A stretch of DNA of 64,000 bases, from positions 1 to 64,000 of the IMG/VR virus record IMGVR_UViG_3300032295_002791. One strand, given 5' to 3'. The translations under genes were made by a program, and so were the position numbers. Of this stretch, positions 1 through 21,200 are shown one piece after another. The notes below the pieces were generated by a model that made no database searches, was not told the origin of the DNA, and saw only the letters and a program-made list of their open reading frames with translations. The DNA comes from a virus (taxonomy: Duplodnaviria > Caudoviricetes). Position 1 is the stretch's first letter, and each line of letters begins with the position of its first letter.

Positions 1-318
1 AACTGGACAAGAGATGTTCAGAAAAAAGTTCCTTACTACGCAGACCAAATTCCACCATTCGATATCACAGTTACATTTGTTAACGAATATGGAAACGCAG
101 CAGTAAGATCAATTTATGGAGTTGAGCTTTTGAACGAAGGTTCGGGAGCATCAATGGATGATATAGTAATTGAAGAAACAATGACCTACGTCGCTAGAGA
201 ACTTGGGCCAATGTATACCATTTCAACATCAGCTCTGGAAAAAGATCAGAGTAATCTTGCTGATATCATTAGCGGTAACGCCGTAAAGGGTATGAGACCA
301 GAAATAATCCGTCCATAA
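1..318 (+). CDS. Tail tube-like virion protein, C-terminal part (5' truncated by window edge); probable major tube protein
   Basis: Frame 1 is open from base 1: NWTRDVQKKVPYYADQIPPFDITVTFVNEYGNAAVRSIYGVELLNEGSGASMDDIVIEETMTYVAR. This aligns closely with the next ORF (PLADMLPPFDIVFTFFNEYGNASKMKIYGVTIVDEGQTMSIDDIMTEQTYTFMAR). A hairpin follows, and the gene lies upstream of the chaperones and tape measure. Confidence 0.7.
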   Translation, partial: NWTRDVQKKVPYYADQIPPFDITVTFVNEYGNAAVRSIYGVELLNEGSGASMDDIVIEETMTYVARELGPMYTISTSALEKDQSNLADIISGNAVKGMRPEIIRP

Positions 319-2178: not shown

Positions 2179-2697
2179 ATGATGACAGGAAGAAAAGTAA
2201 CAATCAAAAGCAACCCAGAAGCAGCAGAGCAAATGGGTGTTGATGAAGTAACCGAAGTAACAGTTGATGGCCCAGCTGGAGAAGACGTGGATGCAGAAGT
2301 AGTTCTTGAGGAGTCAGTCAGCATCGAATCTCTTCCTGATGATCAGGAAATATGGGACGGTGGCCCGAATGCTGGCATGATCAAAGCATGGAAAGAACAA
2401 TTTGGTGAAGTATATGTTACATCGATAACTTTTGATAAGCATATCGTATGGAGAGTTCTTAATAGACTCGAATACAAGAATCTTGTTAAGAAAATGGAAC
2501 AGCTTGTTCAGGCTGGTCAGTTAAGCTCAGCAGAAGCCAATATGTGGAACGAAGAAGCAATTGCTGAATTGTGCATTCTTTATCCGCAATTTGACAAAAT
2601 AGAGATGAAGGGCATTATGGCTGGTATTCCATCATTGATTTCCCAAGAGGTATTAGAAGCCTCCGGATTCGTTGCCTTGGAAGTAAGACAGTTATAA
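2179..2697 (+). CDS. Tail assembly chaperone-like protein 1
   Basis: Lies between tube genes and tape measure. Acidic N-terminus; WKEQFGEVY..IVWRVLNRLEY..CILYP..GIPSLISQEVLEASGF. Confidence 0.6.
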   Translation: MMTGRKVTIKSNPEAAEQMGVDEVTEVTVDGPAGEDVDAEVVLEESVSIESLPDDQEIWDGGPNAGMIKAWKEQFGEVYVTSITFDKHIVWRVLNRLEYKNLVKKMEQLVQAGQLSSAEANMWNEEAIAELCILYPQFDKIEMKGIMAGIPSLISQEVLEASGFVALEVRQL

Positions 2698-2706
2698 TTT
2701 TAAAAT

Positions 2707-3336
2707 ATGATAGAACCTGAAAAACTTTATGAACTTAAAAAGAAACATGGTTCTATATTCAGTGTTAACCTAAAAAGCCAGCAAGTAATTTTTAGGGAAT
2801 TAACATTTGATGAATATGACAAAATTCTTGAATATAAAAATTCTGAGGATACATCTTCCTTAGACGCAGAAGATTTAATTATTAATTCTGCAGTTGTATA
2901 TCCTGATGACTTTTCTGTAGATGCAGTCCAGCCCGGGCTGATAGCTTCGTTGGCTCAAGAGATAATGGACTTTTCTGGGTTCTATTCTGCCGGCCTGGCT
3001 AAGAGTATATTGGAATCCAAAAGAGAAAAAGCTAATGAAGTAAGAAGCTTAATGAAAGCTTTTGTTTTGGCTACTATAACTACGTACTCTCCTGAAGATT
3101 TAGATAAGATGACCTTTTCCCAGTTGGCGGAAATGGTTGCCTTATCTGAAAAAATTATAGAAATAAAACAGAATATAAATGGAATTGAATCAACCAATAT
3201 TACTCTTCAGTTAATAGATCCTGAAGAGGAATTGGCAAAGCAAAAGCAATCTGCGGCAAGACATAATCTTTCCAAGAAAACAGGAGAAGCAGAGTATCAA
3301 GACCCAATAGCACAAAAGCTTTGGGGTATGCAATAA
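2707..3336 (+). CDS. Tail assembly chaperone-like protein 2 (paralogue)
   Basis: LKKKHGSIF..VIFRELTFDEY..SAVVYP..GLIASLAQEIMDFSGF aligns with the previous ORF. Confidence 0.6.
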   Translation: MIEPEKLYELKKKHGSIFSVNLKSQQVIFRELTFDEYDKILEYKNSEDTSSLDAEDLIINSAVVYPDDFSVDAVQPGLIASLAQEIMDFSGFYSAGLAKSILESKREKANEVRSLMKAFVLATITTYSPEDLDKMTFSQLAEMVALSEKIIEIKQNINGIESTNITLQLIDPEEELAKQKQSAARHNLSKKTGEAEYQDPIAQKLWGMQ

Positions 3337-3354: not shown

Positions 3355-6300
3355 TTGATTAGAGATCGTGGACCGATTCATAACTTAGGTTATGGTGTTA
3401 CGTCCAGAGATCTATCTTTCAATGAAGGAGAGACTGAGGGCGTCTCACCTAATAGTGGCCAATTAACTAAGGCGCTTGATGGCCATCCGGTCATGAGATT
3501 TTTTGCTCACACTGGAGCAACAATAGCCGTTGCTGGCGTTATGTCGGCAATGATGAAAAAGGGTGGGCTAAAGCTAGCTCAAAAATTACAAAGTTCTACA
3601 ACTGATTTTGCAACCTCGTCAGTTAAAACAATAACAGATATAAGAAGACATCTTGATCAGCTACAAGGCGTTAAAAGATTTGTCGAAGATGGTGTTGATC
3701 CATACTCAAAACTTGTATTTGAAACTGAAGAAGGAATAACAACTGGTTATAAAGGTTCAAGTAGTGAATCTCATAGGCTTTATAATCTTACAAAAGATGA
3801 AATAAGACAAGCTCAGAGAGGTCCAACCCACTCCCCACCAGCCCTGTACACAATGCAGGATGAAATACAGAAAAGGTTGGTTAGAGCTGGAAGAAGACTG
3901 CCGTATGAGCTTCCCGCTTTATATGTTACACAAAGAGGTTTGACAGATAATCTTTTTGGAAAAAATGAAGACAAGAAAAAAGTAAATTGGTATAACCCGG
4001 TAGACGTAGTAACAGACTTTGTTAAAACATCGGTAACTAACCTTGCAACTACTATTCTTCCATTTGAAGTGCTTGGAAGTAGTGCAACTGTAACAAGAAG
4101 TTCTTTAATGAATTTCAAGAACTCAATGGGCTCATTAAGGAGTATGAGTCCAACAAGACAAGCAATGAACAAGGGGTTTGTAGATCTTTCTGAAGTTTTA
4201 TCAGAAGTAGGACATGACGCAGCTTCTGTTTCTAATAAGTTTTTAAAGAAAGCATCACAATTAAGTGGAACCTTCAATGCTGGAGCAGAAGCATTTAAAG
4301 AGCAACCACAATTTGTTAAATCCCTATATGATGCTAGACACGGTGCAAAAATTGCAGCCGATGCAGCTAGGGCAAAAAATGCAAGCTCAGCGCAAAGGGC
4401 AACAGAAGCAGTAAAAACTTTTGCATTTGGTCTTTCATCTCCAGCTACAATTCCAGGAACAAGCACACCAGTTCAGTATGGGGCTTTTGACGCCATCCCT
4501 GCATTTAGAGGTTTAAGCGGTGCAATAAAAGCTGGCTACAAAGAATTTAAAATGTCTGGGCAAGCATATGATGCAATTCAAAGTTCAATTAGATACAACG
4601 AAATTATATCAGATGCTACTATGGCAGTTGGGACAGCATCTCGCAACTCTTTTGAAAAATCAATACAAAGAATTCAATCTCAACATTCAAGTAGATTAAC
4701 GCGTCTTGCTGGCCAAGTATCCATACTTGGAGCGGGTGGACCAGGAGATAAAGCTTTTGGCAGATCAGATTTCTACAGGGGTCAGCAAACTCATGAATAT
4801 AAAAACCTTCTTGCACAAAGATTAACAGCAAAAGGTGTATTGGGCACCGAGGAAATAGATGATTTTGTAAATCAATTAAGAGTAAATACTCCAGGAAGAG
4901 GGTCTCATTCTACTAACGTAATTTCAATAGGTAGATCAACAATCGTTGCAGATGAGAGTGAATATTACGACATTGTTCTTAAGAAATATAAAACACTTAA
5001 GCATGGTAAGAGTTTTGAGCAATCTTTAACCGCCGCTGCTGGTGGAACTAGCCCACAAAATTTCCTAAAAGAAATTGTTGATGAAACAAATGCTCAATTT
5101 CTAAGTAAAGAATTCCAGCTTGGAATGAGAAATAAAATTGGAGAACAATGGAATTCATTCGCAAGAAATGACTTAGTAGATATTGCTGGGACAATTCTTA
5201 AACCACAAAAAGCTGTTTATAATGAATTTGTTGGACCACTGAGTTCTGCCAAACAACAATTCTTACAAAGGAAAACAGCACAAGTACTTGGCGTAAAATT
5301 AAAAAATGATTCTGGAAGAATGGTATCAGATGATATTGTTAAGAAAGGATTAGCAAATAGAGGATTTGATCCAAATGATTTTGTTGGATTAAGATCTTTC
5401 CTTCTAGAAAAAAGACAAATATCTTCTGGTCTATTTGGTGGTAACTACAACATATTTGGACTAAAGCCACTCCTAATAGATGAGGCAATACAGAGGGATA
5501 GATTTAAGGGACTACCTGATTCTCAAAAAAGAATAATATCAGACCTTGCTGGAAGAATGGCAATTAATGATCCAGTTTCTAAATCCATAGGACTTAGTAG
5601 GCTAGATGGAGTTTATAAAACTAGATCAGGAAATATATTAGACTTTAGTACAATAAAAAACACTTTTTCAAATACAGCTAATTTCTTTGCTTCTGAATTC
5701 CAAATACCAATTATCAAATTAAATCCAGCTGATTTATTTGGATTTAGATCCTTTGCAGATATAGCCAAGAGAGGCCCACTACAATATAGCCCAGGAAGAT
5801 CAGTACAACCATTTGGTGACTTAGCGTCTTCAAAAGCAGATTTCCACATGTGGCATAGCACTGGTGGATTTCTTGGAACAAAAGGTAAAATTACTAGCTA
5901 TTCTGTTAACTCAGAATCTGGTGCAACCTTTGGAAAAACACTAAGGGGAACATACAGGCCACTTCCAACCAATAGCACAGAGATGCTTACCAGGCATGCT
6001 AGGTATGCAGCTGGCCTTACTGGCCAAGCAGCATATGAAGTAACTGGGCAATCTGGTTCTAGATTTTTAGATAGAGTATTAAATAACTCTACCAATAATC
6101 AAAGAGCTACTAGATTCAAGAGTAGAATGGCAATCGACTCTGAGCAGCCAAACTCTATATTTGGTCTTTTGTCTAGATTCCAAAAAAGAAATGTTGATGT
6201 AAATAATCCAAAAATATTATCAAAATTATTAACCGGAGAAGAAGTAACACTTAAGACTGACAGTGTTTCTAAAAAAATTAGATTAAATTCTAACAGTAAC

Positions 6301-9300
6301 GGTGTTACCTTCATAGATGAAGCTGGTTTAGCAGTTAGCGGTATTGAAGAAAAGCAAATACTAACTGCAATGAATGACCTAAGAAAGAATACTTTCCAAT
6401 ACGGTCTGCCCAAAAAGGTAATGGAGCAATTAGAACTATTTGATAAAACTTTATTTACTTTTGGCGCAACAAATAAGAGTATAGCTAATATAACTACACA
6501 AAAAGAAGCGTTTGATTTTGCAGCAGAGATAGAGGCAGCTCTGCCAATGCTCAAGGCTCAAGCAAGAGAAATGGGAATAGATCCAAGGGTTATAGAACAA
6601 TCTTTTTCTAATATAAGAAAACTACAAAGAGAAACTAATCTTTTAGCTACTTCTCAATTAGCCCAAAGGTCTCCATCTATTTCGACAAAAATAGACGAAA
6701 TGCGAAATGAAATATTTAGATTTGTTTCGCAAACAAATGCAGCAATAACCGGAAATCCAGCATTGGGCGGTAGACAAGATGACATGTTTATCGCAATGCA
6801 AGATGTTATATTAAAATTAAAATCTCAACTACCGGCATCAGAATTTGCTGAAGCACAAGCTGCAGCGTTATCAACACTATTTAACACTAGTGCATTTTCA
6901 ACATACAAGAGAGACGCTCAACTATTTGATAACGCAAAGAGCGCAGCTGCTAAGCTAGCAGAATTTGCAACAGGTAAAGCTAGTGGAGCAGTAAAGACTT
7001 TCTTTAATCCGTACACATCTGGATCTGCATCTGTTATAAGTACAAATATAAAAAGGCCTTTTTCTTCTTTCCTTCCTCCATTTAAAAAAGCTTTCGGCAC
7101 TGCTCAATATAAGATCGGTGATTTATCAACAGATCCTTTGGGATCTTCTGGAAATGCAATAACTTTTGTTCCAACCTTTGGAACTGTATTCGAAAAAAAT
7201 CCATTTGGGGCAATCAAAAGTGCATTAGGTTTTACAACCTACTCTGATCCAGCTTCATATTCTGTAGCATCAACGCCAATATCTCAAGGCGTAGAGCGTT
7301 TAAATAGGTACTTTGGAACACTAGGAATGCAATTAGATGTATCCAAGTTTAAGGGTCCATTAGATCTATATGCAAGAGGAATGGTTGGCAAACGAGTTCT
7401 CCCAATATATGCTGCTGGTACAACTGTCTTCACCGCAGATAGAATGTTGGGTGGAGCACTTGGGCCAGAAGATAATTATGGAGAGAAAACTTATTCTCCA
7501 TTTGTCACAACAAAAGTCGCTAGAGCAATAGTTGAAACACAAGCAATTGCTGCAGGCCTAACTCCTGGTGGCATGACCAAGGAAGAAAAGAAGGAAGAAC
7601 TTTTAGATGGAGAAGTGCCAATTAGGCAGGGTAGATTCTGGCCGCTAGGCAACACTCCATTTAAGGGTGGAAAGATTCAATACTATAGACCATCTTGGTA
7701 TAGAAAACTACAAGGTGGAGCGCTATTCACATCTGATACCTATGGAAGTCCAGCAGAAAAATTCTTATTCTACAATGACATTTCGCCACTAAGGCCATTT
7801 GATCCATATAGATTTGAAAGAAAACATTATCAAGACAGACCATATCCTGTAACTGGAGAATATTTTACTGGTCCATTTGGTCCGATAAATACTGTCCTCA
7901 ATGCAACCGTAGGTAGAGTTCTAAAACCACAGGTCGCAATGCATCAGCAAGAAGTAATGCAGGGGCTTGGTCAATATGTGGCAACTGGGCAATATGGCGC
8001 ATATGACACAAGTGCGTATAATGCAGGAATGGCTGGTGGCTCTAATGTCATACCAATAAACAGGGGTGCACTTGGTGGTCCCGGTGGATCTTATTCATCT
8101 ACAATGGTTTCTTCTCAGGTTGGTGGCTCAAATGCAAACTTAAGAGGAGCAGCACAATACCCATTAAATACTGCTCGTGGCACCACACGCAATGCTATAG
8201 CTGGATTAAATCAGCCGCTGATGGAAATGTCGTATGGTCCTCCAAAACAAAGAGGAGTAATGCCACCAAGAATAACTACTGCTGGTCAACCGATAGCTTC
8301 TGATATGTCTGGAGAGTTTGGGTACAGAGCTCAGGAAATGGCTGGTATTTATGGATTTGGATTTGCAAGCCTTAGAGAAAAATTTGGATTTGGTGAAAGT
8401 GATTTTGAACCCAATAGAGCAATGCTACAATCAGCTTCAAAAGGTTATGGAACATCAAGAGCTTTCTGGGATTTGAATCTTGGTGGATTGGGCGACGTTC
8501 CGATTCCAGCACAAGGTGCTCTTGGTAACATAGAATTTTCTGAAATTGTAAGAAGATTTATTCCAAAAGAAAGAACTGGAATAGATTACATAAACCCAAT
8601 TGCAAATACAATGGGTAAGCAGTATCCGTTTATGCCCGGCCCAGAATATTATATTAACTTTCAAACAGGTGATCCATTTACAAAAGTCCAAGAAGGAGAA
8701 GTAAGACTTCCTGGAAGGGGGTATGAAAGATTTAATAGAATATCAGCGGATGATACTGGCAAGTATGGATTGGTTGATCAATTTAAAATTCTTGCTGATG
8801 TTGCTCCATACTCTCAGCAATTTAAATCTTTGAATAAGATGATGGACAAGATGGCTTTAAGTCCTGATCAAAAAATAAAAATTCAAGAGATTAGAGGCCG
8901 GGTAGAAGAAACAACAAGTAAATATGAATTCACTCCTTATCCTGATCAAAAAAATACAGTAGGCGGTAGCATAGGCAGAATGCAAAGGCTTGGAGAGTAT
9001 GTTGCTCATCGAGATACTTTGTTTAATACCAAGTTCTTAAACAAGAGAACAGCAACCGAAGATTGGGAAAGAAGAAATGTTTATGGAGCGACTTTCCCAC
9101 AGTGGCAAAGGCCGTTTGAAAGCTTCATTGAACCAATGCTCAATAAAGCAACTCAGAGAGATCCATTAACAGCAGCAGCAGCTTTGGGTGTAACTGGTTC
9201 ATTTTTTGGTAGAACTCCAAAAGCAAGATTGTTTGGTAGCGCTGTAGGAACGGTGGTTGGTGGAGGTGTATCTGCAATATCTCAACTTGGTCAAAAATTA

Positions 9301-9981
9301 ACTGGCGAAAGATATATTCCTCTTCAGAGAAAGAAAGAACTTGCTCTTGAAGAATATTCCGATATATTAACTTATACAAAAAATACTAGATTAGCATCCA
9401 TGGCCCAACAGGCTGGAGACTCTGCCGCAGCAAATCAATATAGACAAGCTGCAAAAAGAACAATGTATGGAGCAGACCTCTATGGAATGCCTATCGATAT
9501 GTTGAAACTCGCTATACCAAAAAGAAAAAGAGAACATTTTGTAGAAATGTTAAATGCTCCAGGCTCAGAAAGAGAAAGAATTCTTTCAACAGCTGGAAGA
9601 TTAGAGAGAAGAATTTATCAAGCAGCATGGGGTATGCCGGTTGAAGAAAAACCAGATTTAGCCGAGTACTTTGAAAGACACCAGCTTCCAGATTTATCAT
9701 GGGAAGGCTGGCATCCAAACACAAACATGGATCATGTAAAAGTTAAGATAGGTCAATCAATGGGTCTTGAAATGTCTCAAATGGGTTACTATCCACAACA
9801 GATAAAAGAAGCTAATTTGGCAAATCCAAGTTACCCAGTTTTTGATTCATCTTCCGCTAGAACAGATGTTCTATATAGGCTAAGGCAAATAATGAGTGGT
9901 ACTGGGGTGTCTGGAACGGTAACTCCAGTAATGAATCCATTTGGTTCTAATGAGATTAGTATTGCAGCAGGGATGAGATAA
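3355..9981 (+). CDS. Tape measure protein candidate (2208 aa)
   Basis: Very long, Ala/Gly/Ser-rich and largely helical, with several glycine-rich hydrophobic segments. Directly follows the chaperones. TTG start after AAGGGG. Confidence 0.6.
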   Translation: MIRDRGPIHNLGYGVTSRDLSFNEGETEGVSPNSGQLTKALDGHPVMRFFAHTGATIAVAGVMSAMMKKGGLKLAQKLQSSTTDFATSSVKTITDIRRHLDQLQGVKRFVEDGVDPYSKLVFETEEGITTGYKGSSSESHRLYNLTKDEIRQAQRGPTHSPPALYTMQDEIQKRLVRAGRRLPYELPALYVTQRGLTDNLFGKNEDKKKVNWYNPVDVVTDFVKTSVTNLATTILPFEVLGSSATVTRSSLMNFKNSMGSLRSMSPTRQAMNKGFVDLSEVLSEVGHDAASVSNKFLKKASQLSGTFNAGAEAFKEQPQFVKSLYDARHGAKIAADAARAKNASSAQRATEAVKTFAFGLSSPATIPGTSTPVQYGAFDAIPAFRGLSGAIKAGYKEFKMSGQAYDAIQSSIRYNEIISDATMAVGTASRNSFEKSIQRIQSQHSSRLTRLAGQVSILGAGGPGDKAFGRSDFYRGQQTHEYKNLLAQRLTAKGVLGTEEIDDFVNQLRVNTPGRGSHSTNVISIGRSTIVADESEYYDIVLKKYKTLKHGKSFEQSLTAAAGGTSPQNFLKEIVDETNAQFLSKEFQLGMRNKIGEQWNSFARNDLVDIAGTILKPQKAVYNEFVGPLSSAKQQFLQRKTAQVLGVKLKNDSGRMVSDDIVKKGLANRGFDPNDFVGLRSFLLEKRQISSGLFGGNYNIFGLKPLLIDEAIQRDRFKGLPDSQKRIISDLAGRMAINDPVSKSIGLSRLDGVYKTRSGNILDFSTIKNTFSNTANFFASEFQIPIIKLNPADLFGFRSFADIAKRGPLQYSPGRSVQPFGDLASSKADFHMWHSTGGFLGTKGKITSYSVNSESGATFGKTLRGTYRPLPTNSTEMLTRHARYAAGLTGQAAYEVTGQSGSRFLDRVLNNSTNNQRATRFKSRMAIDSEQPNSIFGLLSRFQKRNVDVNNPKILSKLLTGEEVTLKTDSVSKKIRLNSNSNGVTFIDEAGLAVSGIEEKQILTAMNDLRKNTFQYGLPKKVMEQLELFDKTLFTFGATNKSIANITTQKEAFDFAAEIEAALPMLKAQAREMGIDPRVIEQSFSNIRKLQRETNLLATSQLAQRSPSISTKIDEMRNEIFRFVSQTNAAITGNPALGGRQDDMFIAMQDVILKLKSQLPASEFAEAQAAALSTLFNTSAFSTYKRDAQLFDNAKSAAAKLAEFATGKASGAVKTFFNPYTSGSASVISTNIKRPFSSFLPPFKKAFGTAQYKIGDLSTDPLGSSGNAITFVPTFGTVFEKNPFGAIKSALGFTTYSDPASYSVASTPISQGVERLNRYFGTLGMQLDVSKFKGPLDLYARGMVGKRVLPIYAAGTTVFTADRMLGGALGPEDNYGEKTYSPFVTTKVARAIVETQAIAAGLTPGGMTKEEKKEELLDGEVPIRQGRFWPLGNTPFKGGKIQYYRPSWYRKLQGGALFTSDTYGSPAEKFLFYNDISPLRPFDPYRFERKHYQDRPYPVTGEYFTGPFGPINTVLNATVGRVLKPQVAMHQQEVMQGLGQYVATGQYGAYDTSAYNAGMAGGSNVIPINRGALGGPGGSYSSTMVSSQVGGSNANLRGAAQYPLNTARGTTRNAIAGLNQPLMEMSYGPPKQRGVMPPRITTAGQPIASDMSGEFGYRAQEMAGIYGFGFASLREKFGFGESDFEPNRAMLQSASKGYGTSRAFWDLNLGGLGDVPIPAQGALGNIEFSEIVRRFIPKERTGIDYINPIANTMGKQYPFMPGPEYYINFQTGDPFTKVQEGEVRLPGRGYERFNRISADDTGKYGLVDQFKILADVAPYSQQFKSLNKMMDKMALSPDQKIKIQEIRGRVEETTSKYEFTPYPDQKNTVGGSIGRMQRLGEYVAHRDTLFNTKFLNKRTATEDWERRNVYGATFPQWQRPFESFIEPMLNKATQRDPLTAAAALGVTGSFFGRTPKARLFGSAVGTVVGGGVSAISQLGQKLTGERYIPLQRKKELALEEYSDILTYTKNTRLASMAQQAGDSAAANQYRQAAKRTMYGADLYGMPIDMLKLAIPKRKREHFVEMLNAPGSERERILSTAGRLERRIYQAAWGMPVEEKPDLAEYFERHQLPDLSWEGWHPNTNMDHVKVKIGQSMGLEMSQMGYYPQQIKEANLANPSYPVFDSSSARTDVLYRLRQIMSGTGVSGTVTPVMNPFGSNEISIAAGMR

Positions 9982-12900
9982 TGTTATTTGATTTTATTAA
10001 AGATCCAATTAAAAAACTTTCACTTGCGCAGCAGTCTCTTGGGAAAACAGAATTTGGTAGAGGTGGAGTTATAAGGGTGGAATTAAATCCATCTACAAAC
10101 GCCATACAATATGTCATTTCAGCAACTGGAGAAAGATTAGATACCCCACAAGAGGCTTTCTTTAAAGCAAGCACCTTGATGATGACACAATTTGAGTCTC
10201 TCAGTGCCGTGTCCGGTTCTGTATCTAATTTAATTAATAACCCAAATAACCCAAAGTACGCACAAGTTGGAGAAATATTAAGTAGTATACAAGAAAATTT
10301 AAAAAAGAAGAGTTTAGACCCAAATGCAGTAGCAAAACTCAAAGCCATGGGAATAGACATTGGCTCAACGGGCACAGACGTCAGTGCAAATATTATAGCA
10401 AGTAGAGCACAAAGGGGAGCAAAACCAAAAGACTTCCTTCAAGAAGTAAGAAGAATATCGGAAACAGCTTCATCAAAGGGTGGGTTTATTCCCTTTATAG
10501 ATGACGAAGGCGCAAACTTATTGCAACTTAAAGTTGGCGGTAAAATATTATCTGATGAACAAGCGTATTACATGTTAAGCGTTATAGGTAATCCAATATT
10601 TAATCAAGAAAAATTTGCTAGCGTTTTTGCAGGTGATAAACCAATTGATGCATTTATGGAAAAGATTGTAAAAAGAATGAAAGGTTTAATCTCAGAAAGA
10701 GATATAACCATAACTGAAGAGACATTGAGGCAGGCTTTTGGGGGTAAGAATCCTAAAGCAATTGTCCTTGAAGAGGGCCTAGATCTTTTGAAAAAACGTT
10801 TTAACCTAGGGGACGCAAATTCTTTAACGCAAAAAGCACTAATAGGAACAGATCCAAAAACACTTCTAGAAGTATCTGTAGGAAACTCAATTAAATCTTT
10901 AGATCCCAAAACTAGTGTAATTCAAGATCCACAAAAATTTATAGATGGTTTTTTTCAAAGATCGGACATAAAAGATTTAATACGCACTTCAACAAGCAAT
11001 GAAGAATTAGTAGCTAAATTAAAAAAAATAGAAGAAAAAGGTATTATTTCTAAAGATGAAATTACAATCTTTCAAAGATTTATGGATGACGCAGAAAAAG
11101 AAATTGACGGTATTACAGTTTTAAATGCAAGAGTCATCAATGCAAACGATAAAAAATCTAAAGGTGTAATTAAACAATTAGATGATCAAATAAAACAATT
11201 AAAGGAAAATATAAAGAATTCATCATCTCCGGCAGATAGAGAAAGATTGGCTAGAAAGCTAGACGAACTGCAGCAAAGAAGAAGCGTTATAGGCTCTGCA
11301 GAAAATCTTTATCAAGTAACTGGTAGAGGATCTTATGGTGGACGTGGAATAAAAACAGCATTTGATATTAGAGATCTTGTTGGTAAAGATTTTGAAGATG
11401 TTTATATGATAATAGGCAGATCTGGACTAAAGAAAGAAATAGGATTAGCTGGATCAGAAACATTTGTAACTATTAGCGGATTTGGCTCATCAAGCACCAG
11501 CGTATATTCAGACCCTGTATCAGTTGCTTTTCATCCTGAAATATTTGCAAGCAAAGAAGAATTAGAATCAATGCAACAATATTCAGCTCAAATAATGCGC
11601 GACTTTCAAGAAGCGATAGAGTCAGATGTTCTTCCTGAAAAAATTAGAAATATGTTAAACAAAAATATTACAGAAGATCTTTCATATGCTACGCCTTCTA
11701 TGAGATCAGCAAAAATAAGAAACCAACAGTATGCAAGAAGAATTTTAGAATTACATCAATCTGGAATAGGCCCTAAACAGTCTCCAGAAATGATGAACCT
11801 ATTACATAGTACATTTGCAGCAGAAGCTTTTAGAGTAACAACTAAAGAAGGGCAAGCAAGATATTTGCCCACAATGCCCAATGTGTTTAGATTTGCTGTC
11901 AGCACTGAAACAGCAGCTGCATTGGCAGGTGGAGAAGAATCAATACTTGGTAAGGGTATAGAAAATATTAATTTTAAATTAGCTGGAGAAGAAAAAACAG
12001 CAGAATTATTAAAATTTAGAATTAGTAATGGAAGGTTATTATTTGCAGCTGGTGGAGTTTCAGAATTTTTTGAATCATTGGGTGGATTTGACTTGGACGA
12101 CAAAGGTCTGCCAAGACTCATGACTTACGAAGATGCTCAAAATAATAGAAGATTAGCATTTAGTTTGACAAGACAGCCTTCTGGTATACAAGAAAGTATT
12201 ATAGCTAGTGCAAAATTGAACGACATAAGAACATTAAAAGCTCTTTTTGGAGAAAAAGAAGATTTCTTGCAAGCATTGCGATCTATAACCGTAAGGGGAA
12301 CGCTAGAAGAAACTTTGCTAAATTCACTTACTGGTACTGGTGCAAAGGCAATTAAATTTGATTCTATAAAAGAAGAAGATATAGGAACAATAATACAAAA
12401 TGTATATACAAAAATGGGCAGAAGTATAGGAAAAATGGATCCCAAAATGCTCCAAAACCTTGTTGATTATGGACCATCTGCATTAAGAAATACAAATCTT
12501 TATCAAAGAAGTGAAATTTATAAAGTATTTAAAGAAACAGGCGCATTTGATTTTACTTTAGATAAAGAAATGGGAGAATTGGTTGATAATTATAGACCAA
12601 TATTAGACTCAGGATTATACGATGAACTTAAAAGAACATTAAGCATTGCTGATACAGCAACAAGAAGGAATGACTTAACTAAATTAATTAATGCAAATCA
12701 AAATGATGTAGGCATAGAAGCTCTTTTGACTAACTCTATTTTTAGAAAAATGGAAACCGCTTCTCTTGAACCAGGAAACTCACTTGGACTTTATGTTAAC
12801 AGAACAATGGTTATTGGCTCTACATTAAATCAATTTGATGATTATATGAATTTTATAGAAAATAATATTCAAGTAAACGAAAGTTTAAAAGAAATCTTAC

Positions 12901-14744
12901 AAAAGCAAATAGGATTAGTTTCTTCAGAAACGGCAATTGACACAAGCGTTAACTATTCAAGTTCTCGTTTTGTGGCAAGAATGGAAAATACATTAGACTT
13001 AGCGCGAGCTGCTGTGGAAGCTGGCGGAAGTGCAGATGATATACAAAGAGCAGCATTTAAAGCCTTAGGCTATACTGATGATGATATAGCAAGAGGATTG
13101 AGTTTAGATATAGTTGGCACAAGAGCTATTTCGGGATTGGGAGAAAGAATAGGTACTGCAACAGCCTTAATGACATCTCAAGAATTTGTTGGACAATTTG
13201 TTGGACCATTTGATACAAGTTTAAGACCTGTGATAGATCAAATATTACTGGAAGACAGACTCTCTGATAGTGATATTTTAAATCTATTTGATTCTATTCA
13301 AAAAGGAATTAAAGATGCAAGGAAAGTTCAAACGTTAACAGGCACTGCATTAGATCAACTAGAAGAAGATCTACTAAATACTGGATCCTCTCTTGTTGAA
13401 AGAAGAGAAACACTTGGCAGAATATTTGGAGCATCTAAAGATCACAAGTATGCGTCAACGGCAAAACACAATGCTATGGCAGAAGTGCAAAATGCACAGT
13501 TTAATTTAATAAAAAAACTCGGTCTAAACTCAGTAGCAGAAGATCATATATTAGCAGCTAAAGGTATTTCTGAAGAATCAAGAAAGTTGGCAAATGTACT
13601 CCTGGATAAACATTCCGAAGCATATCAAGATGCAACTCGAAAATTATTAGGAGAATCTTCTCAACTTGAAGACTATGTACAAAATGCAAGAAGGTATGCG
13701 TTAGGTCAAAAAGTTTACGAAGATATAACTGGCGCTCAACAGATAACTGGTCTATCAAGAGAAGAAATAATAAATGCTATGGATAAGGTTGCGGCAGAAA
13801 GATCAGCTTTAACTCGTCAACGTGGAATGGATTTATCGTCACTCTATTATTCAGATGATGAAAATTTCGCAAGTCAGATTACAACTACAAGGGCAAAAAG
13901 AAGAGCAGACGCAATTAGAGTTACAGCTGGAGATTTAGAAGAGCAAGTATTAAATGATTTAGTAGACAATAAAATAATTGGTAAAGGGCCACTTGACTTA
14001 AGTGCTACTTCATCAATCATTAATAAACATTTTGAAAGTATACTTGAACCAACAACAACTGCTTCAGAAGAAGAAAAATATTTAGCACAAGCCATACTGG
14101 GCAAAAAAATAGAAACAACCGATGCAGAACAAGTTAGTTTAGCCAGAAAAAGAGCTGACGTTATCAGAACTCAAACACTAAACAAAGCTTTACAACAAGA
14201 TCAGGCAGTAGCTCAAGCTCTAACAGCAACTGGGCAATCAACATTCACTGGTGATGATAGTCTAAGAAGTGCAATCAATGCGGCCATGAACGATGAAGAT
14301 TATACTTCTTTCTTAAATGCAAAGGGTAAGTATGTTAGATTTTCTGAATATATTAAATCTGGAGAATTAAAAAATTTATTTAAAAATAATAATTTATTTA
14401 GAAGTTCAATATATGCAGCTGGTGCTTTAATAGTTGGCAGCTTTGCATATCAAAGTTTTAAAGATCATACTCCAGAAAAAGTACAAGGCCCACCTTTGCT
14501 TCCTGGTGGATCGGCTTATGAGGGACAGTATCCAAATAGAGCTGCAGAAATTCCGCAGATGGGAACAGTATCTTATAATCCAGGAGTAAGTTATAAAGTT
14601 AACTTATACGGCAATAGGAGACAGGTTTCGCAGTTCCAGGACATGGCTATGGGGCTCGGAAACTTCGATATGGACACTACTATGTATTCTGGAATCCCAC
14701 AAGTTGGAACGGATCCTTATCAGCAGCTAGCTAGCTCGTATTAA
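9981..14744 (+). CDS. Large virion protein with degenerate two-barrel RNA polymerase-like motifs (putative virion RNAP)
   Basis: DG (aa 376), QVTGR..GIK (445-458), IIGRSGLKK (to 485), GGFDLDDK (701-708), RQP (731-733), and a C-terminal hydrophobic helix. Stop/start overlap TAATG with the tape measure gene. The ORF is certain; the function is inferred. Confidence 0.45.
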   Translation: MLFDFIKDPIKKLSLAQQSLGKTEFGRGGVIRVELNPSTNAIQYVISATGERLDTPQEAFFKASTLMMTQFESLSAVSGSVSNLINNPNNPKYAQVGEILSSIQENLKKKSLDPNAVAKLKAMGIDIGSTGTDVSANIIASRAQRGAKPKDFLQEVRRISETASSKGGFIPFIDDEGANLLQLKVGGKILSDEQAYYMLSVIGNPIFNQEKFASVFAGDKPIDAFMEKIVKRMKGLISERDITITEETLRQAFGGKNPKAIVLEEGLDLLKKRFNLGDANSLTQKALIGTDPKTLLEVSVGNSIKSLDPKTSVIQDPQKFIDGFFQRSDIKDLIRTSTSNEELVAKLKKIEEKGIISKDEITIFQRFMDDAEKEIDGITVLNARVINANDKKSKGVIKQLDDQIKQLKENIKNSSSPADRERLARKLDELQQRRSVIGSAENLYQVTGRGSYGGRGIKTAFDIRDLVGKDFEDVYMIIGRSGLKKEIGLAGSETFVTISGFGSSSTSVYSDPVSVAFHPEIFASKEELESMQQYSAQIMRDFQEAIESDVLPEKIRNMLNKNITEDLSYATPSMRSAKIRNQQYARRILELHQSGIGPKQSPEMMNLLHSTFAAEAFRVTTKEGQARYLPTMPNVFRFAVSTETAAALAGGEESILGKGIENINFKLAGEEKTAELLKFRISNGRLLFAAGGVSEFFESLGGFDLDDKGLPRLMTYEDAQNNRRLAFSLTRQPSGIQESIIASAKLNDIRTLKALFGEKEDFLQALRSITVRGTLEETLLNSLTGTGAKAIKFDSIKEEDIGTIIQNVYTKMGRSIGKMDPKMLQNLVDYGPSALRNTNLYQRSEIYKVFKETGAFDFTLDKEMGELVDNYRPILDSGLYDELKRTLSIADTATRRNDLTKLINANQNDVGIEALLTNSIFRKMETASLEPGNSLGLYVNRTMVIGSTLNQFDDYMNFIENNIQVNESLKEILQKQIGLVSSETAIDTSVNYSSSRFVARMENTLDLARAAVEAGGSADDIQRAAFKALGYTDDDIARGLSLDIVGTRAISGLGERIGTATALMTSQEFVGQFVGPFDTSLRPVIDQILLEDRLSDSDILNLFDSIQKGIKDARKVQTLTGTALDQLEEDLLNTGSSLVERRETLGRIFGASKDHKYASTAKHNAMAEVQNAQFNLIKKLGLNSVAEDHILAAKGISEESRKLANVLLDKHSEAYQDATRKLLGESSQLEDYVQNARRYALGQKVYEDITGAQQITGLSREEIINAMDKVAAERSALTRQRGMDLSSLYYSDDENFASQITTTRAKRRADAIRVTAGDLEEQVLNDLVDNKIIGKGPLDLSATSSIINKHFESILEPTTTASEEEKYLAQAILGKKIETTDAEQVSLARKRADVIRTQTLNKALQQDQAVAQALTATGQSTFTGDDSLRSAINAAMNDEDYTSFLNAKGKYVRFSEYIKSGELKNLFKNNNLFRSSIYAAGALIVGSFAYQSFKDHTPEKVQGPPLLPGGSAYEGQYPNRAAEIPQMGTVSYNPGVSYKVNLYGNRRQVSQFQDMAMGLGNFDMDTTMYSGIPQVGTDPYQQLASSY

Positions 14745-14749
14745 GGTTA

Positions 14750-15211
14750 ATGTATATGATCTTTGGTGCAGACAAACAAAATAAGAATTTAAAAGACGCT
14801 GCATCTAAACGAATAGACACTAGTCCAAGGACACAAACTTCAAATAAGTATGCAGCCAAGATAGCTTCTAGTAAGAACATATCAAGCGGCTCAGAGGCTT
14901 CTGGAGCTCAAAGTACAGAATATAGCCCAAAGGGCGATATGAGGCAATCAGACCCTCTGAGAGGCTCCTGGGAGGGCTTAGACAAGGGTTCTTCGACACA
15001 TATCCAAATGAATGGAACTGGATACTTAAATCCAGCAATCCAAAAAGCTAGATATAATAAAACATTTGCCTCTCATTCTGGAAATTTAAGGCAAGATTCT
15101 TTTACAAAAAGAAATTTTAGAAGTATAATTGACAATAGAAGCGGTAATACTGTGGAAGGATCTTCTTCCGAAATTGTAAGTTCATTGAATAGAAGAAATA
15201 ATTTAATATAA
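14750..15211 (+). CDS. Hypothetical basic, Ser/Asn/Lys-rich protein, probably disordered
   Basis: ORF tightly packed between two giant genes; no recognisable motif. Confidence 0.6.
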   Translation: MYMIFGADKQNKNLKDAASKRIDTSPRTQTSNKYAAKIASSKNISSGSEASGAQSTEYSPKGDMRQSDPLRGSWEGLDKGSSTHIQMNGTGYLNPAIQKARYNKTFASHSGNLRQDSFTKRNFRSIIDNRSGNTVEGSSSEIVSSLNRRNNLI

Positions 15212-15214
15212 ACT

Positions 15215-18200
15215 ATGCCTATTAACGAAGCAGCATTAGAAGCAGAGAATAAAGAACTTAATAATTTTTCCGACCCTACAGTTTCTGGTGAAGATACCCT
15301 TAAACAACTATTGAATCTAATGGGAAGGTTCGACAATACTACCAATGGGTATGATAAAGATTTTGATTTTGTACTTGGCTCTCATTTTGCGATGAGTGGC
15401 AAGGGAGACTTTGAGCAAAAAAAAGCATCAGCTATAAGAATCTTTCAGGGAACAAATGTAGAAGCAATAGCACAATTAGATAGCAAATACCGCAAAAAAA
15501 TATTTAGTAAAATACAAGATACAGGATTATTTGGTCTAGCTTTCAAAGGTTTTTCTATTTCAGAATTTGGTAAAAAAAGATTATCTTCTATTACATCTGC
15601 AAAAAGGGGTGCAGCCGACGCACTTAACCCGACTACAGACACCGCTTGGTTAACCGAGCTCACTAAGGTTGTTAGAAATTTATCTTCAGATCCAATTACT
15701 CTTGGTATTATTAATTCTTATTTTCCTAGCCTTGTAACCTTTTTATTTGACGCCATTGCTGTAACTGCCGACTATTCAAGTGGCGGAGAAGTCAATGGCG
15801 AATCTGATGACAGCATAAATAGCATGAAAGACTTTATAGCAAGTCTTGAAAAAGCTTTTGGTCGAGGACTAAACGATTCAAATCAAACATTTAAACAAGC
15901 CGTATTTACAATGGCATTTAATTTTGAAAATACAGCAAAAAGAATGAAAGCTGTATTAGATAATTCTCCATATAGAGAAAATACTCAGCCAACATCTCCA
16001 GACGTTTTTCATTTGCGCTTGGGTGCAGCTAATTTCTTTGTCCCACCATTATCAATAGATGTTAATACATCTTTTAAAACAGGCAGCTTAACTGGTGGTG
16101 CTCTAAGACAAAAAAATACTCCAAAGTTTAATTCTGGTTACAAGGAAAGCTCTATTAGAATGAGACTATTCTTTCCTAACTATGAAGAAATTTGGGGAAT
16201 ATCAATAGACGATGCTTCTAAAATTGTTCTTGGAAATAATTATGAAATAGATTTTAAATCTGATGGTGCAAGCGATCAAAAGATAGATAAATTTTTATCA
16301 TCACTTCGTGGGTTGGTAGCTGCATTCAAATACTCTCCATTCCTTCCTATCAGAAATCAGTATCTTAATACTGTTCATGGAATCACCGCCGTAGCTCTAT
16401 CGAGTATGTCAATATCAACTGTTCCTAATTTCCCATTTGCCTTAGCCGTTGATATAGAACTTATGAACTTTAATCATAAGCCACTCTTGCCAATGATTAA
16501 CGATTTTAATCAAGCAATACACTGGGGTAAGTACAGGCAATTTATGGGCAAGGCAGCTGGAGCTCTTCATAGTTATGTAAACGAAAGTTTCTTAATGAAG
16601 ACAACTGACGAAAAAGCCCTAGACACACCAGTTAATACGGGAACGGTAACCGTTGGTACAGGGGAATATGAAATAAGCCCCTATGGTGCATCGCTGACAA
16701 AACAAGCTGCGTATTATGATGACATATTAAAAACTAATATAGTGTCGGAATGGAATGATGGAAAAAATATAAGCTTCTATGTTCCAGCAGAAACTCAAAC
16801 CAAAATCTTTTTACCTGACGCTACATCATTTAGAAATGATGAAGAAAGACTGTCGAGTGATCAAAGTCAGGATTTTTGGGGAAAAATTTTAAGTGGTTTT
16901 GGAGTAGACATAAATGAATCTGCTGGATATGGTCTTAATTTAAGTGGCGTATATAATTTATCTAAAAATACTGGAATTAATCCTAATATAAAATATCATT
17001 TATTAACTGTAATGGATATTCTAACCGCTGGATTAAATGATAATTCACAGCGTAAAAAAGTTTATAGCTATGTAGCAACATTATTTGTTAAAGAAAATTC
17101 ATTAGACGGAGCAGAACAAGCTTATATTCTTAATATTGATAGTACAAATGTTCCACCTGAAACAGGCGTAAGAACATATCAATTCAATTCAGTTTCTTTT
17201 GTGGATACTCAGGGCAATCCTAGAAGCCTTAGTTTTATGAAGGCTTATTTAAAAGAGATATCTAAAACTTCTAAAAATCTTTTGGATCAACAAACAAAAT
17301 CGTTAGCAGATAGTCAAGCTAGAAAAGCTGGAATAAAAGTTCCAGATACGTATGCTGATGGAACCGCCGCTTATAAAAATCTTTATGATAAGATAAAAGA
17401 TCAAATTAAAAATGGATTCAACTTAACTCTTTATGAAAGATTTTTTAAGAGTGCACCAATAGAACAGCTTCTTGAGGCAGCAAGAGCAAAGCAAGGAGCA
17501 TTCTCGTTCAGAGAATGGGAAGTCCCTATGCTTAAGATAGATCTTGATCCAGCCGCAGCGATAGTAACTGGAGTCTCCTTAACCCTTGGTAACAACATCG
17601 CCAAGTTGCAATTGCAGATGCAGGATGAGCCAACCTATCAGCATATAGGTGGAAAAGATACCTATATTAACATCTCGATGAGAATCATTGGCGAAAAAGA
17701 ATTAACCAAACTAAAGAGAATATTTGATCATGTCAACGCATTGGCAAGATTAGAACATTCGACTGGGGTTATTGGTTTTATCGGAATTAAGAATATAGTT
17801 ACCGCATTGTCTGGCGTTAAATATGTATTGCCATCAAACTTTTCAGTTAATACAATTCCAGGTTTCCCGCATGTGTATGAAGTAAATATAAGTTTGATTG
17901 ATTTTGATATTTTTCAACAATCAAGAGAGAGGTTGGACTCAAATCAACAAAGAGAATTAATAGAGCATTTCTCTAGTAAGAAAAATCCATTCCTTAGAAT
18001 TAAACAAATGTGGGGATTATTTAATGCGTACCCAGATCTTCCGCTTGACATAAAGAATGACAAGAATGAAGTTGTTGGACATTTAGATCCAGACTTCTAT
18101 TTTAGAAGTTTTGAAATGTTTGATAAAGATATCATTAATAATATATCAACAGCTCCAAAGCAATTAGACATTCCAAATCCAAATGATAATTTCGGTGTAA

Positions 18201-21200
18201 AAGTAACCGAATCAATGCACGTTCATGTGGCAAGTCAAATAGCTTCTTTCTTAAGAGTTTATCCATCTTCAAATTCATCAAATGCAGCTTTTCAAGAAAC
18301 TAGAAAAGATATACTAAATGATGTAATTTTTTATCTTGAAAAAACTGGTATAAATTTTGATCAATTTATTTCTATTTTTGAAAAAGTAATTTATAATCCA
18401 AATTATTTTGGACTAGATAGTTCGGATGAAAGAAGTAAAATTACTTCTCTTAAGAAAAATCTAATTACAGACTATCTAGATTACATAAAACCAAAAGATT
18501 CTAGTACTCAAGATGAATTTTTAAATAAAGTTTCTTCTGCTCCATACCAAGTTGGAGATATTAATTCTAGTAGTTCTGAACTTCTAGACGATTTAAAGAA
18601 AGCCCTAGCTGGAAAATACAGTTTAAAAAATGAAGAATTTGTAAGCTTTGATCCAGATGAGTTAGAGTTTCATCACATTATTACAACTTATCCGATCAAA
18701 GATAAAGATGAACCAAATAAAATACCAGCAATAATACAGACTGCTCTTGGCACTAATCTTGGGTACCTTGACATGGAAAAGGATGCAAGATTTTATCTTA
18801 CATTGGATGGCATTAATGTTAAGAAAACTGAAAACGGTGCAAAAATAGAACCAAGAGGCATATCAGATAAGCACTCAGATCCTTCATACTCTGCTACTCA
18901 AGCTTCAATAGCTGGATCTACAGCCTACTCTAATTATCAGCAACCGTATTCTCACGGAGCAGGAGCTGCCCCAGAGACAATGAATAGCTCAAAATCCGTA
19001 GATACTGTTGAAGCTCACTGGGAAAAAATGCTTGTTGACACATCTTACAGAGACGTGTCAGGCAGAATGCTTAGGGCATTCCCGACGTACATGTTGTGGT
19101 TAATTGACGAAGGAGGATATTTTGCTGGTGTTAAAGTATTCGATAATTTTTATGGATTACAATCAATAATAGATTTTTCTATTATACAGTCAGAAGATCT
19201 TCTTGGTGACACATTGGTATTTAGAGTATCAAATCTCTATTCAAAACTTTCCAGAAAAGAATCTGCTTCATTTTTTGCCGTAGACTCAGAATATTCTCAG
19301 GACAATCCAAGCTTGACCGATGGACTGTCAAGCGTAATAGATGTTACTTTAAATAAAGCCAGAAATATATTGGCTCATATGAAGAATGATTATGTTGTTG
19401 ACATAGAGAATATAAGATTAAAGCCAGGTGTAAGAGTTCATTTAAGAGGTGGTTATGGAGCAAATCCTAATTCACTTCAAACATTGTTCAATGGTGTTAT
19501 TAGCCAAGTAGAACTTGGAGAAATTGTCACTGTCACCGCACAATCTGACGCAATAGAGTTGGGTGCAGTTGTGAACTCAACAAACAAAAAGGGTGACAGT
19601 GGAAAAATAGATGGCGGAATAAATACTGGTCTTTGGTTGTCTGAACCAAGAGACTTGATGGTAAGGCTTCTTTCAATGGGAGCTTCTAGATTTAGAGAAG
19701 GAATAGCTTACGCTAATAGAGGATTGGTTTTCTCAGAAAATAAATTTGGAATAAGACACTTTGGTTCAATTGTTTATGAACCACTTACAATAGACGAAGA
19801 AAGAAAACAGCAGGCAAGAATAGATGCTGTAGCAGATGCTTATAATTCAGTTGGCACCGGGAACGCTGCTGGACTTGGAAAGTCTTCATTAGATATAGCA
19901 GTTGGTACAAATGAATTTAGAACTCCAGTATTTTCTTTAATGAATCAATTATGGTCAAATTTTTCTCAGGCAAGAGATTTTGAAATATTTAAGAGAAATA
20001 TTTATCCAGGAAATGGAACTGGAATAGCCCAATTCCTTGGTGGAGATTTAGGAGATGGTTGGACATCTGTGTCTTCAATAACACCAAGCAGTCAGCCAAA
20101 TGAAAGAATTGAATATCTATCTAGATTAACTGACAGAAGTTGGAATGGACTTGTTCAAAAATATGCAGAAGGAGATATTGATGCAAAGGCTCCAATTGAG
20201 CAATTAACAGGTGACGGACAAATAAGAGATAATTCTGGATCGTCAAAGTCTGCTTCAGCTGTTGGCTTAAGTGGTTTACTTGGTGTATCCGCAATTGTTG
20301 GTGGTCCAGTTGGAATTGTTGGCGCAACTATCGGTGCAGGGCTTCTTGGTGTTCTCTCTAAAAGAGGTGGCGATAATATTTTCAACATGCTCGGACTGAC
20401 TTCTAGCTTAGATGACGACATGCCTGGTTTTGATGAAGTTTCATTTAGGGCACAAACATATATGAGATCTGTGTGGGACCTATTCCAAACATGTGCAAGG
20501 CTGCTTCCAAATTACATAGTTGCAGTAAGACCATTCGAAGATAGATCAACAGTGTTTTACGGAAAACCACACTGGCTGTATACTTCTGGTGTTGTTCCAG
20601 TAACAACTGGATATCCGGGTGATGAAAAAATGGGAGAACTTGGGATTAATATGGGTCCCAAGATTGTTAGTCCAGATTTTGAATTGAGTAGAATAATAAC
20701 TGAAATAAATAAAAATTCGAGTTCATATGCAGACGCAGATGCCTTCATTAGAAGCACAGAGCCAACAGACGCAATCGCTGAATTAACAACTACTCAAAGA
20801 TATGCGCAAAGTTATTATGCAACATCGGCGGCTCTAAAGGGTCAATTAATTAATTTTGATTCGAATAGATCAAAAGTTTTAGTCGATTCAAACGGGAAAA
20901 CAGTTGCAAAACTTCCAAAAACAAAAGGTATAGTCACTATGGGATTCCATTTGCCAGTAGATAATAATACTGGTGGAGGATCAAAAATAAGTTCAACATC
21001 TAAAGTTATATATTCAACAGATCCGCATAGTCAAATTCCTCAACTCCCTGCAAGATTTAGATTTCCATTGTTTACAAACAGGGCTGATACAAACGGTTTC
21101 TATAGATTAGAAAATTTCTCATTTCAGTATGACGAAATAAGAGGATATTCTAAAGCCAGTAGAATTATTTCTGATTTGGGAAATTCTAAAGGTGACGCAG

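Follow-up and report, generated by a model that had tools for sequence, protein, structure and literature searches.

A candidate virion-packaged two-barrel RNA polymerase with an unusual metal loop in the tail module of an uncultured phage

The P0001 gene, its motifs and its family

The gene considered here, P0001, is a candidate RNA polymerase gene on a 64-kb stretch of DNA from an uncultured lake phage, positions 1 to 64,000 of IMG/VR record IMGVR_UViG_3300032295_002791, which we refer to as the window. The window is the start of a 91.6-kb viral record rated 43% complete, and the genome is therefore expected to measure about 200 kb. P0001 lies between two giant genes with homologues in the Bacillus phage 0305phi8-36, and its parts, in amino acids (aa) and nucleotides (nt), are as follows, with the basis of each assignment in brackets.

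9981-14744, + strand: P0001, whole gene, 1,587 aa, one uninterrupted frame with zero in-frame CGG.
9981-11075, + strand: conserved N-terminal domain, aa 1-365, with a basic helix carrying invariant K228, K231, R232 and R240 (conservation).
11076-11540, + strand: candidate first barrel, a beta-like double-psi beta-barrel (DPBB-B), aa 366-520, with D376-G377, a hairpin insert at aa 383-443, Q445, R449, K458 and K484 (model strands, structural alignment).
11541-11828, + strand: predicted helical connector between the barrels, aa 521-616 (helices at model residues 183-287).
11829-12212, + strand: candidate second barrel, beta-prime-like (DPBB-A), aa 617-744, with R637, F679-R680, GGFDLDDK, R731-Q-P733 and E738 (predicted local distance difference test, pLDDT, >90; alignment; invariance).
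12780-12950, + strand: candidate bridge-helix and trigger-loop region, aa 934-990, with G936, N940, R941, E983 and D987 (long helices at model residues 605-631, conserved block, range arithmetic).
12978-14402, + strand: poorly conserved C-terminal half, aa 1000-1474, of helix-favouring composition, possibly a tail-lumen or tape-measure-like part (conservation profile, composition).
14403-14741, + strand: hydrophobic segment, aa 1475-1492 (nt 14403-14456), and C-terminal domain, aa 1493-1587, with PPLLPGGSAYE (column identity 0.62-0.73, invariant columns).

Five motifs had been singled out in the original prediction, and we find all five, residue for residue and nucleotide for nucleotide: EIDGITVLN (aa 374-382), QVTGRGSYGGRGIK (aa 445-458, containing Q445, R449 and K458), MIIGRSGLKK (aa 476-485), GGFDLDDK (aa 701-708, nt 12081-12104) and LTRQP (aa 729-733, with RQP at nt 12171-12179). 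The overlap with the preceding gene that had also been noticed is present, with the start ATG at 9981 sharing TAATG with the TAA stop of the 2,208-aa upstream open reading frame (ORF), and the insert described between D376 and Q445 is modelled as a helical hairpin spanning aa 383-443. The proposal that the protein ends in a hydrophobic helix holds for the segment itself, which is moderately hydrophobic and highly conserved at aa 1475-1492, and fails for its terminal position: another 95 residues follow, and these last 95 residues show the highest conservation within P0001.

P0001 belongs to a large family, with 118 homologues in a 90%-clustered protein collection, and relatives in 170 clusters at 50% identity and in 169 IMG/VR stretches, on contigs of up to 219 kb. 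Among 25 diverse homologues, D376, G377, K458, K484, G701, G702, D704, L705, D706, D707, K708, R731, Q732 and P733 are invariant; among 129 members with identity down to 21%, D704, D706, D707, R731, P733 and E738 remain invariant, and D376, G377, R449, K458, K484, R637, G701 and F703 are conserved in at least 90%. The loop reads G-[G/T/S]-x-D-x-D-D in 244 of 244 collected relatives, with DxDxD in none, and R-x-P follows it after 20-31 residues. The GGxDxDD loop, the RxP and both Lys, whose conservation had been proposed as a check, are thus among the most conserved columns of the family, and because of this conservation we take the motif observation to be real and far beyond chance.

Searches of Pfam, PHROGs and PDB sequences with P0001 or its profile return nothing meaningful, and tblastn and blastn against 50,697 phage records give zero matches. 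Within the phage record, the Pfam RdRP domain (PF05183) and Rpb1 domain 2 are not matched; the Pfam search for a T7-type RNA polymerase is also negative, but its control is silent too, which makes it uninformative. In the ESM Atlas the C-terminal half of P0001 has no match, and the core weakly resembles tape-measure clusters (scores 0.76-0.80). Full-text literature searches uncovered no description of such a family. Because Pfam, PHROGs and profile searches all fail to reveal the family, its genes, thousands of them, now carry the annotation hypothetical.

Predicted fold and candidate active site

Two confident AlphaFold2 models built from family alignments cover aa 330-1010 (681 residues; pLDDT 81; predicted template modelling score, pTM, 0.78) and aa 444-790 (347 residues; pLDDT 90.1; pTM 0.84). 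When the long model is compared with the PDB by Foldseek, all 12 best matches are to Neurospora QDE-1 or plant RDR2 (best E 4.7e-3), eukaryotic polymerases of RNA interference with a single-chain two-barrel core (PDB 2J7N, 7Y7P, 7EU1 and 7W82). The first VIA-wide list for this model is swamped by helical-hairpin matches to the aa 383-443 insert, and VIA re-alignment of the aa 330-1010 model gives the following.

A. thaliana RDR2: Z 8.0, 315 residues.
QDE-1: Z 7.2-7.6, 306-358 residues.
Maize RDR2: Z 7.3, 290 residues.
P74-26 gp62: Z 5.7, 269 residues.
P23-45 gp64: Z 5.5, 258 residues.

The remaining listed matches of the long model align at most 96 residues, nearly all on the helical hairpin, with one exception of 117 residues whose root-mean-square deviation (rmsd) is 20.8. 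A search of 48,161 representative chains with the 347-residue core, independent of Foldseek, places QDE-1 at rank 1 as the sole chain with Z of at least 5 (Z 5.1, rmsd 6.2, 210 residues aligned), with maize RDR2 at rank 3, gp62 at rank 6 and gp96 at rank 34. The chance of finding four two-barrel polymerases in the top 35 is of the order of 1e-10, on the assumption of about 10 such cluster representatives in the library. A second look at the same core gives Z 5.0-6.3 over 199-220 aligned residues for the RNA-dependent RNA polymerases, and Z 3.6 over 90 residues for the next unrelated chain; identity to QDE-1 and RDR2 in the structural alignments is 10-12%. Among predicted viral structures (BFVD), the best matches are three uncharacterised proteins of uncultured phages (851, 1,141 and 861 aa; E 7e-10 to 2e-7), followed by weak matches to P23-45 gp64 and to crAss-like proteins (E 0.1-0.4 for the latter).

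The only long matches to the predicted fold are single-chain two-barrel polymerases, collinear over both barrels and the connector, and because these matches are specific and collinear we consider a shared two-barrel core the best reading despite the modest scores. The likeness to single-chain two-barrel RNA polymerases that was originally proposed is thus supported by the predicted fold, and a strongly diverged version of the cellular-type RNA polymerase catalytic core is very probably present in P0001.

The alignments yield ranges only, and the residue equivalences given here are arithmetic on those ranges. QDE-1 carries its catalytic residues D709, Q736, R738, K743 and K767 in barrel 1 (PMC9508822), the Pro-gate R962-S-P964 and the triad D1007/D1009/D1011 in barrel 2, and D1116 in the trigger loop. 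In the 681-residue model, residue 36 pairs with QDE-1 700, so that D376 falls at about 709-711. Residue 1 of the 347-residue model pairs with QDE-1 733, which brings Q445 and R449 to about 734-738, and its residue 272 pairs with QDE-1 1019; D707 then lies on 1011 and D704/D706 on 1008/1010. At the far end of the long alignment, residue 668 pairs with QDE-1 1124, which brings D987 to about 1114, near trigger-loop D1116; this end of the QDE-1 alignment coincides with predicted long helices at aa 934-960 and a conserved block containing E983 and D987. K458, K484 and D376 match QDE-1 K743, K767 and D709 in spacing and alignment position, giving the two-Lys, one-Asp arrangement of the first barrel. 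With gp96, model residue 295 pairs with 812, which places the Asp loop at 778-781, on the gp96 DFDGD at 779-783. By this arithmetic, the Asp, Gln/Arg and Lys motifs first picked out in the sequence fall at or within about two residues of QDE-1 catalytic positions, and the three invariant Asp of P0001 occupy a place equivalent to the superfamily metal triad.

The prediction that the Asp loop is D-x-D-D and precedes an invariant RxP holds across the family. The predicted elements are strands at 660-667, 670-682 and 685-688, a helix at 693-700, the Asp loop, and a strand at 708-718; the second half of a canonical double-psi barrel runs strand, strand, helix, metal loop, strand. Sequential structural alignments keep the canonical order through the two barrels as far as the Asp loop. 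We find that these two observations speak against the circular permutation suggested earlier, and a true permutation of the second barrel is rejected on the canonical order of the elements around the loop; the modelled barrel is probably not permuted. A second strand, aa 723-732, ends at R731-Q-P733, which lies 24 residues after the Asp loop at what is predicted to be the tip of an extra hairpin. Strands 708-718 and 723-732 would form this hairpin, whose register would bring P733 beside K708 and D707. Since RQP sits in an extra hairpin beyond the strand that exits the loop, the Arg-x-Pro appears to be relocated rather than permuted; in the model, it looks as if this element had moved next to the metal loop, into a hairpin that has been inserted there. 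The canonical Pro-gate position is a tight turn in the model of P0001. F679-R680, 24 residues before the Asp loop, recalls F-R-N-P..G-H of gp96 minus the Pro, and is not universal among distant members.

Two registers may describe the loop itself. When anchored on its flanks (the S-x-G anchor of gp96, or paralogue 3 described below), the loops are of equal length, with Asp at positions 2, 4 and 5 versus 1, 3 and 5; if the Gly that precedes the first Asp serves as anchor instead, as with QDE-1 G1005, the reading becomes D-x-D-(G deleted)-D.

Paralogues and comparison with known polymerases

Paralogues of P0001 were traced from G002, a complete relative of 209.7 kb that has terminal repeats and a P0001 homologue at 35% identity, and compared across four near-complete relatives (92-100% complete). 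Each of the four has one P0001-type locus, and two compact paralogues are located in G002 as follows.

G002:160174-162756: paralogue 2, 861 aa, GGHDEDD followed 23 residues later by RSPNG..E.
G002: about 148839-151478: paralogue 3, about 880 aa, canonical W-D-Q-D-G-D followed by RSPNG.

Paralogue 2 is present in 4/4 near-complete relatives at 55-59% identity, and its family comprises at least 214 proteins in which the GGHDEDD and RSPNG residues and a D-G-G, N-x-R, K-G, K-x-E series are invariant. Full-length family profiles of P0001 versus paralogues 2 and 3 give no significant hhalign score; only the cropped cores of P0001 and paralogue 2 do so (E 0.0016, 240 columns), with K458, K484, the Asp loop and RxP in register. 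Paralogue 3 is homologous to paralogue 2 (probability 96%, E 2.8e-9) and occurs in 3/4 near-complete relatives, with RSPNG 40-54 residues after DQDGD in three genomes. PDB sequence searches with either paralogue return nothing, and neither beta-prime-type nor RdRP-Pfam polymerase genes are found in the four relatives. From paralogues 2 and 3 together, it follows that the whole lineage shares an RxP placed after the loop and that DxDD is derived from DxDGD.

The copy of P0001 in the window is intact and has zero in-frame CGG. In the relative G001, the P0001 homologue falls into two frames, with the break within the second barrel at an in-frame CAC-CGG-G (193897-193905), where omission of one base restores the frame (GGG TTT GAT), and in G002 the homologous gene is in four pieces. 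One in-frame CGG occurs in P0002, the giant gene upstream of P0001, and none in P0003, the giant gene downstream.

The closest known system in function and position is gp96 of Thermus phage P23-45 together with gp64, and the closest in fold are QDE-1 and RDR2. P23-45 gp96 is a virion RNA polymerase fused to the tape measure, and gp64 is its compact, non-virion paralogue (Chaban et al., bioRxiv 10.1101/2022.12.01.518664 / PMC10770324). Like P0001, gp96 has a single-chain two-barrel core (predicted in the case of P0001) and is encoded in the tail module immediately ahead of the genes for the tail tip; both lineages hold compact paralogues, and gp96, gp64 and P0001 share a first-barrel pattern of (G-)D-G, then Q/V-R, then K-G, then K. 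Structural comparison with P0001 gives Z 4.4-5.7 for gp64/gp62 and Z 3.6 for gp96, and hhalign and hidden Markov model (HMM) comparisons with gp96 and gp64 are not significant. Unlike P0001, gp96 and gp64 have the canonical DFDGD and DYDGD, with R-N or R-P 36-38 residues ahead, and gp96 is the N-terminus of a 5,002-aa siphovirus tape measure, whereas P0001 forms a gene of its own, 1,587 aa long, in a phage whose baseplate is of the contractile-tail type.

QDE-1 and plant RDR2 are the best structural matches overall (Z 5-8, 199-358 residues, collinear) but differ from P0001 in being eukaryotic, dimeric and equipped with a canonical DxDGD; the Pro-gate of QDE-1, R962-S-P964, sits 45 residues before the Asp loop, whereas the RxP of P0001 comes after it. 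The gp66 protein of phi14:2, a crAss-like phage, is a virion-packaged single-chain two-barrel polymerase that is active with DFDID (PDB 6VR4; Drobysheva et al.) and so resembles P0001 in its non-canonical metal loop; it is unlike P0001 in being a 2,180-aa podovirus protein whose Asp residues retain the 1-3-5 spacing. In both QDE-1 and gp66, the barrels are separated by a connector of about 140 residues. YonO of the SPbeta prophage and YonO-like proteins are single-chain two-barrel, non-virion phage RNA polymerases related to RNA-dependent RNA polymerases; their double-barrel group is described with a DxDxD triad. YonO is not matched in any search with P0001, and its absence from the long structural matches listed does not exclude a relationship. 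The P0001 family thus lacks two traits that define the superfamily at sequence level, the DxDxD triad and an Arg-x-Pro ahead of it, while its models keep the fold and the other catalytic residues.

Tail module, proposed role and alternatives

Genes in the neighbourhood of P0001 are all on the + strand, and those that place it in a tail module are listed here.

2179-3336, + strand: pair of small ORFs, paralogous to each other, 172 and 209 aa, occupying the place that the tail chaperones gp143/gp144 have in 0305phi8-36 (both match phrog_29362).
3355-9981, + strand: P0002, upstream giant gene, 2,208 aa, homologue of 0305phi8-36 gp145 (BLASTP E 5e-53 plus further segments).
14750-15211, + strand: small ORF, 153 aa, between P0001 and the hub gene (no PHROG match).
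15215-25762, + strand: P0003, giant baseplate-hub protein, 3,515 aa, homologue of 0305phi8-36 gp147 (phrog_20474, E 6e-126).

0305phi8-36 has the order tube paralogue, gp142, two chaperones, gp145, gp146 (a 'hypothetical tape measure') and hub gp147; gp145 and gp146 were detected in virions by mass spectrometry, and gp147 is annotated as baseplate hub. The gene order of the window is the same, with P0001 in the gp146 slot, and the succession of P0002-like, P0001-like and P0003-like genes is found in 69/69 IMG/VR loci that include the flanks. Like gp146, P0001 comes after the chaperone-position pair and the gp145 homologue and directly ahead of the gp147 homologue; unlike P0001, gp146 has no Asp-loop motif, and no sequence similarity connects P0001 to gp145 or gp146 by hhalign or HMM comparison. 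P0001 has no Pfam or PHROG tape-measure domain, although its position fits the gp146 slot, and the content of helix-forming residues does not decide which giant gene is the tape measure; P0002, which matches nothing in Pfam or PHROGs, is unproven in that role. 0305phi8-36 itself is reported to encode a separate YonO-like polymerase elsewhere in its genome (ABS83659.1). From position alone, the 172/209-aa pair may be tail chaperones. Given the fixed three-gene tail block, the gp146 slot and the conserved hydrophobic C-terminal module, P0001 is probably part of the tail or ejection apparatus.

Taken together, these observations lead us to regard P0001 as, with fair likelihood, a very divergent single-chain two-barrel polymerase that is built into the tail and delivered with the DNA for the first transcripts; it would most probably be a DNA-dependent RNA polymerase, and the phage may thus carry its own polymerase into the cell. 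In such an enzyme, D376, Q445/R449, K458 and K484 of the first barrel would hold the product 3' end and the phosphates of the nucleoside triphosphates, and the three invariant Asp of the second barrel, in a D-x-D-D instead of a D-x-D-G-D loop, would bind the catalytic Mg2+. R731-Q-P733 at the tip of the extra hairpin would probably take over the job of the Pro-gate, the usual Arg-x-Pro before the loop being missing. The protein would be built into the tail or ejection apparatus, enter with the DNA and, like P23-45 gp96, produce the pre-early transcripts; the relatives' two compact paralogues would be non-virion enzymes. The motifs, their conservation, the fold similarity, the synteny and the paralogues are observed; residue equivalences, convergence of the residues in space, RNA synthesis and timing are what we infer, and it is synteny that suggests packaging and injection.

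The transcription setting bears on this proposal. Exact TATAAT is enriched in the intergenic DNA of the non-structural part (10 observed vs about 3 expected in 3.2 kb, p ~1e-3), and 6/10 of these sites carry a TG-type extended -10; examples of TG-n-TATAAT lie at record positions 78116, 79816, 81163 and 85611 and also at window position 2145. A generic sigma-70 promoter scan of 70-90 kb shows no enrichment (65 sites vs 61 +/- 8 expected). A weak Sigma70_r4 match lies at record 71,938-72,063 (E 3.9e-4, below the Pfam cut-off), and Sigma70_r2 is not detected in the phage record or the four relatives. The host-type extended -10 and the weak sigma-like gene suggest that the host polymerase probably reads many of the phage genes.

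Several observations weigh against a virion polymerase with the proposed active site. With much of the transcription probably left to the host enzyme, a virion polymerase is not obviously needed; such an enzyme would be more plausible for a brief pre-early step, like that of P23-45, than for the whole programme. Sequence methods provide no link from the P0001 family to any known polymerase, and the structural scores are modest, with no Foldseek match in the PDB at E <=1e-3 and Z of 5-8. crAss gp66 (6VR4) and the multisubunit beta and beta-prime chains are not among the long matches listed, although this does not exclude them. The D-x-D-x-D triad of the superfamily is found in none of more than 200 relatives, and P0001 lacks the canonical R-x-P before its Asp loop. 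Barrel topology and the convergence of the Asp, Lys and Arg residues on one site are read from alignment ranges and secondary structure. Finally, neither compact paralogue is on the 91.6-kb record, although this says little, as the record is only 43% complete.

The alternative that fares best among the rivals, and that we nonetheless consider unlikely, is that P0001 is a real two-barrel polymerase that is not packaged: an intracellular enzyme, one of three phage polymerases, serving late genes, priming or other RNA or DNA synthesis, with a tail position that reflects co-expression or history. Three paralogues in the relatives would allow such a different division of labour, and the enrichment of host-type promoters in the non-structural intergenic regions is in keeping with it. 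Its position between two virion-protein homologues is, however, fixed in 69/69 loci, the gene overlaps its upstream neighbour, and its conserved hydrophobic C-terminal module is absent from the compact paralogues; moreover, its positional counterpart gp146 is a virion protein, and P23-45 provides a precedent.

Less probable again is a structural tail or tape-measure-type protein in which the polymerase-like domain is a catalytically dead relic that serves only as a scaffold. The non-canonical loop, the loss of the canonical Arg-x-Pro position, the tape-measure look-alikes of the core and the gp146 slot are all compatible with a relic, but across 129 sequences of 21-84% identity the three Asp, both Lys, D376, R731 and P733 show little or no variation, in contrast to the freely diverging remainder. 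The DxDD and RxP signature is also invariant in a compact paralogue that has no tail context, and gp66 of the crAss-like phage is active in spite of a non-canonical loop. We therefore disfavour the 'catalytically altered relic' of the original prediction, all candidate catalytic residues being invariant.

The least probable of the three, a spurious fold similarity with motifs that belong to another metal-dependent enzyme (a nuclease, glycosyl- or nucleotidyl-transferase) or are purely structural, could draw on structural scores that all lie in the range of chance arrangements and on the missing sequence-level link, but is at odds with four separate single-chain two-barrel families, and nothing else with a long alignment, at the top of the 48,161-chain search, with alignments collinear over both barrels and the connector, with invariant residues that map to known catalytic positions at both alignment ends, and with a paralogue that has the canonical DxDGD.

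Returning to the packaged polymerase, a broader picture that we offer only tentatively is that a widespread clade of freshwater phages of about 200 kb runs its transcription, or part of it, with three paralogous two-barrel polymerases of a lineage of their own that have RxP after the metal loop, two of the three with D-x-D-D, one being built into the ejection apparatus and injected so that infection can begin. On that picture, P0001 would add a third kind of virion two-barrel RNA polymerase, independent of the other two, and would be the first among them whose active site is rewired. An abundant natural family in which the fold is kept and both features are rewired would show how much the active site tolerates, and would give the history of RNA polymerases, as well as that of the phage-like polymerases of RNA interference, a further deep branch. 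If the tail-module copy is injected, the virion-polymerase strategy known from N4, crAss, phiKZ and P23-45 would extend to another large group of uncultured phages, and the family gives a handle on the infection programme of that group.

Other features of the neighbouring genes are as follows. P0002 has globular-looking stretches rich in Pro, Gly and aromatic residues and a Gly-rich hydrophobic segment near aa 1937-1980. P0003, whose tblastn matches are hub or endolysin genes of 0305phi8-36, KLEB27-3 and MTATph1, contains a pair of long hydrophobic segments rich in Gly and Ala (aa 1679-1715 and aa 3072-3103), and its C-terminal part reads like a staphylococcal-nuclease domain, for which Pfam gives no match at E <=1. 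Two adjacent short ORFs at window positions 1-318 (105 aa, 5' end open) and 395-1102 (235 aa) match the N-terminal third of phrog_9206, 'major head protein', and by synteny with 0305phi8-36 may instead be tail-tube paralogues. An exonuclease gene at 30412-31671 (phrog_284, E 7.5e-46) lies between the baseplate wedge and the next structural genes, an odd spot for DNA metabolism.

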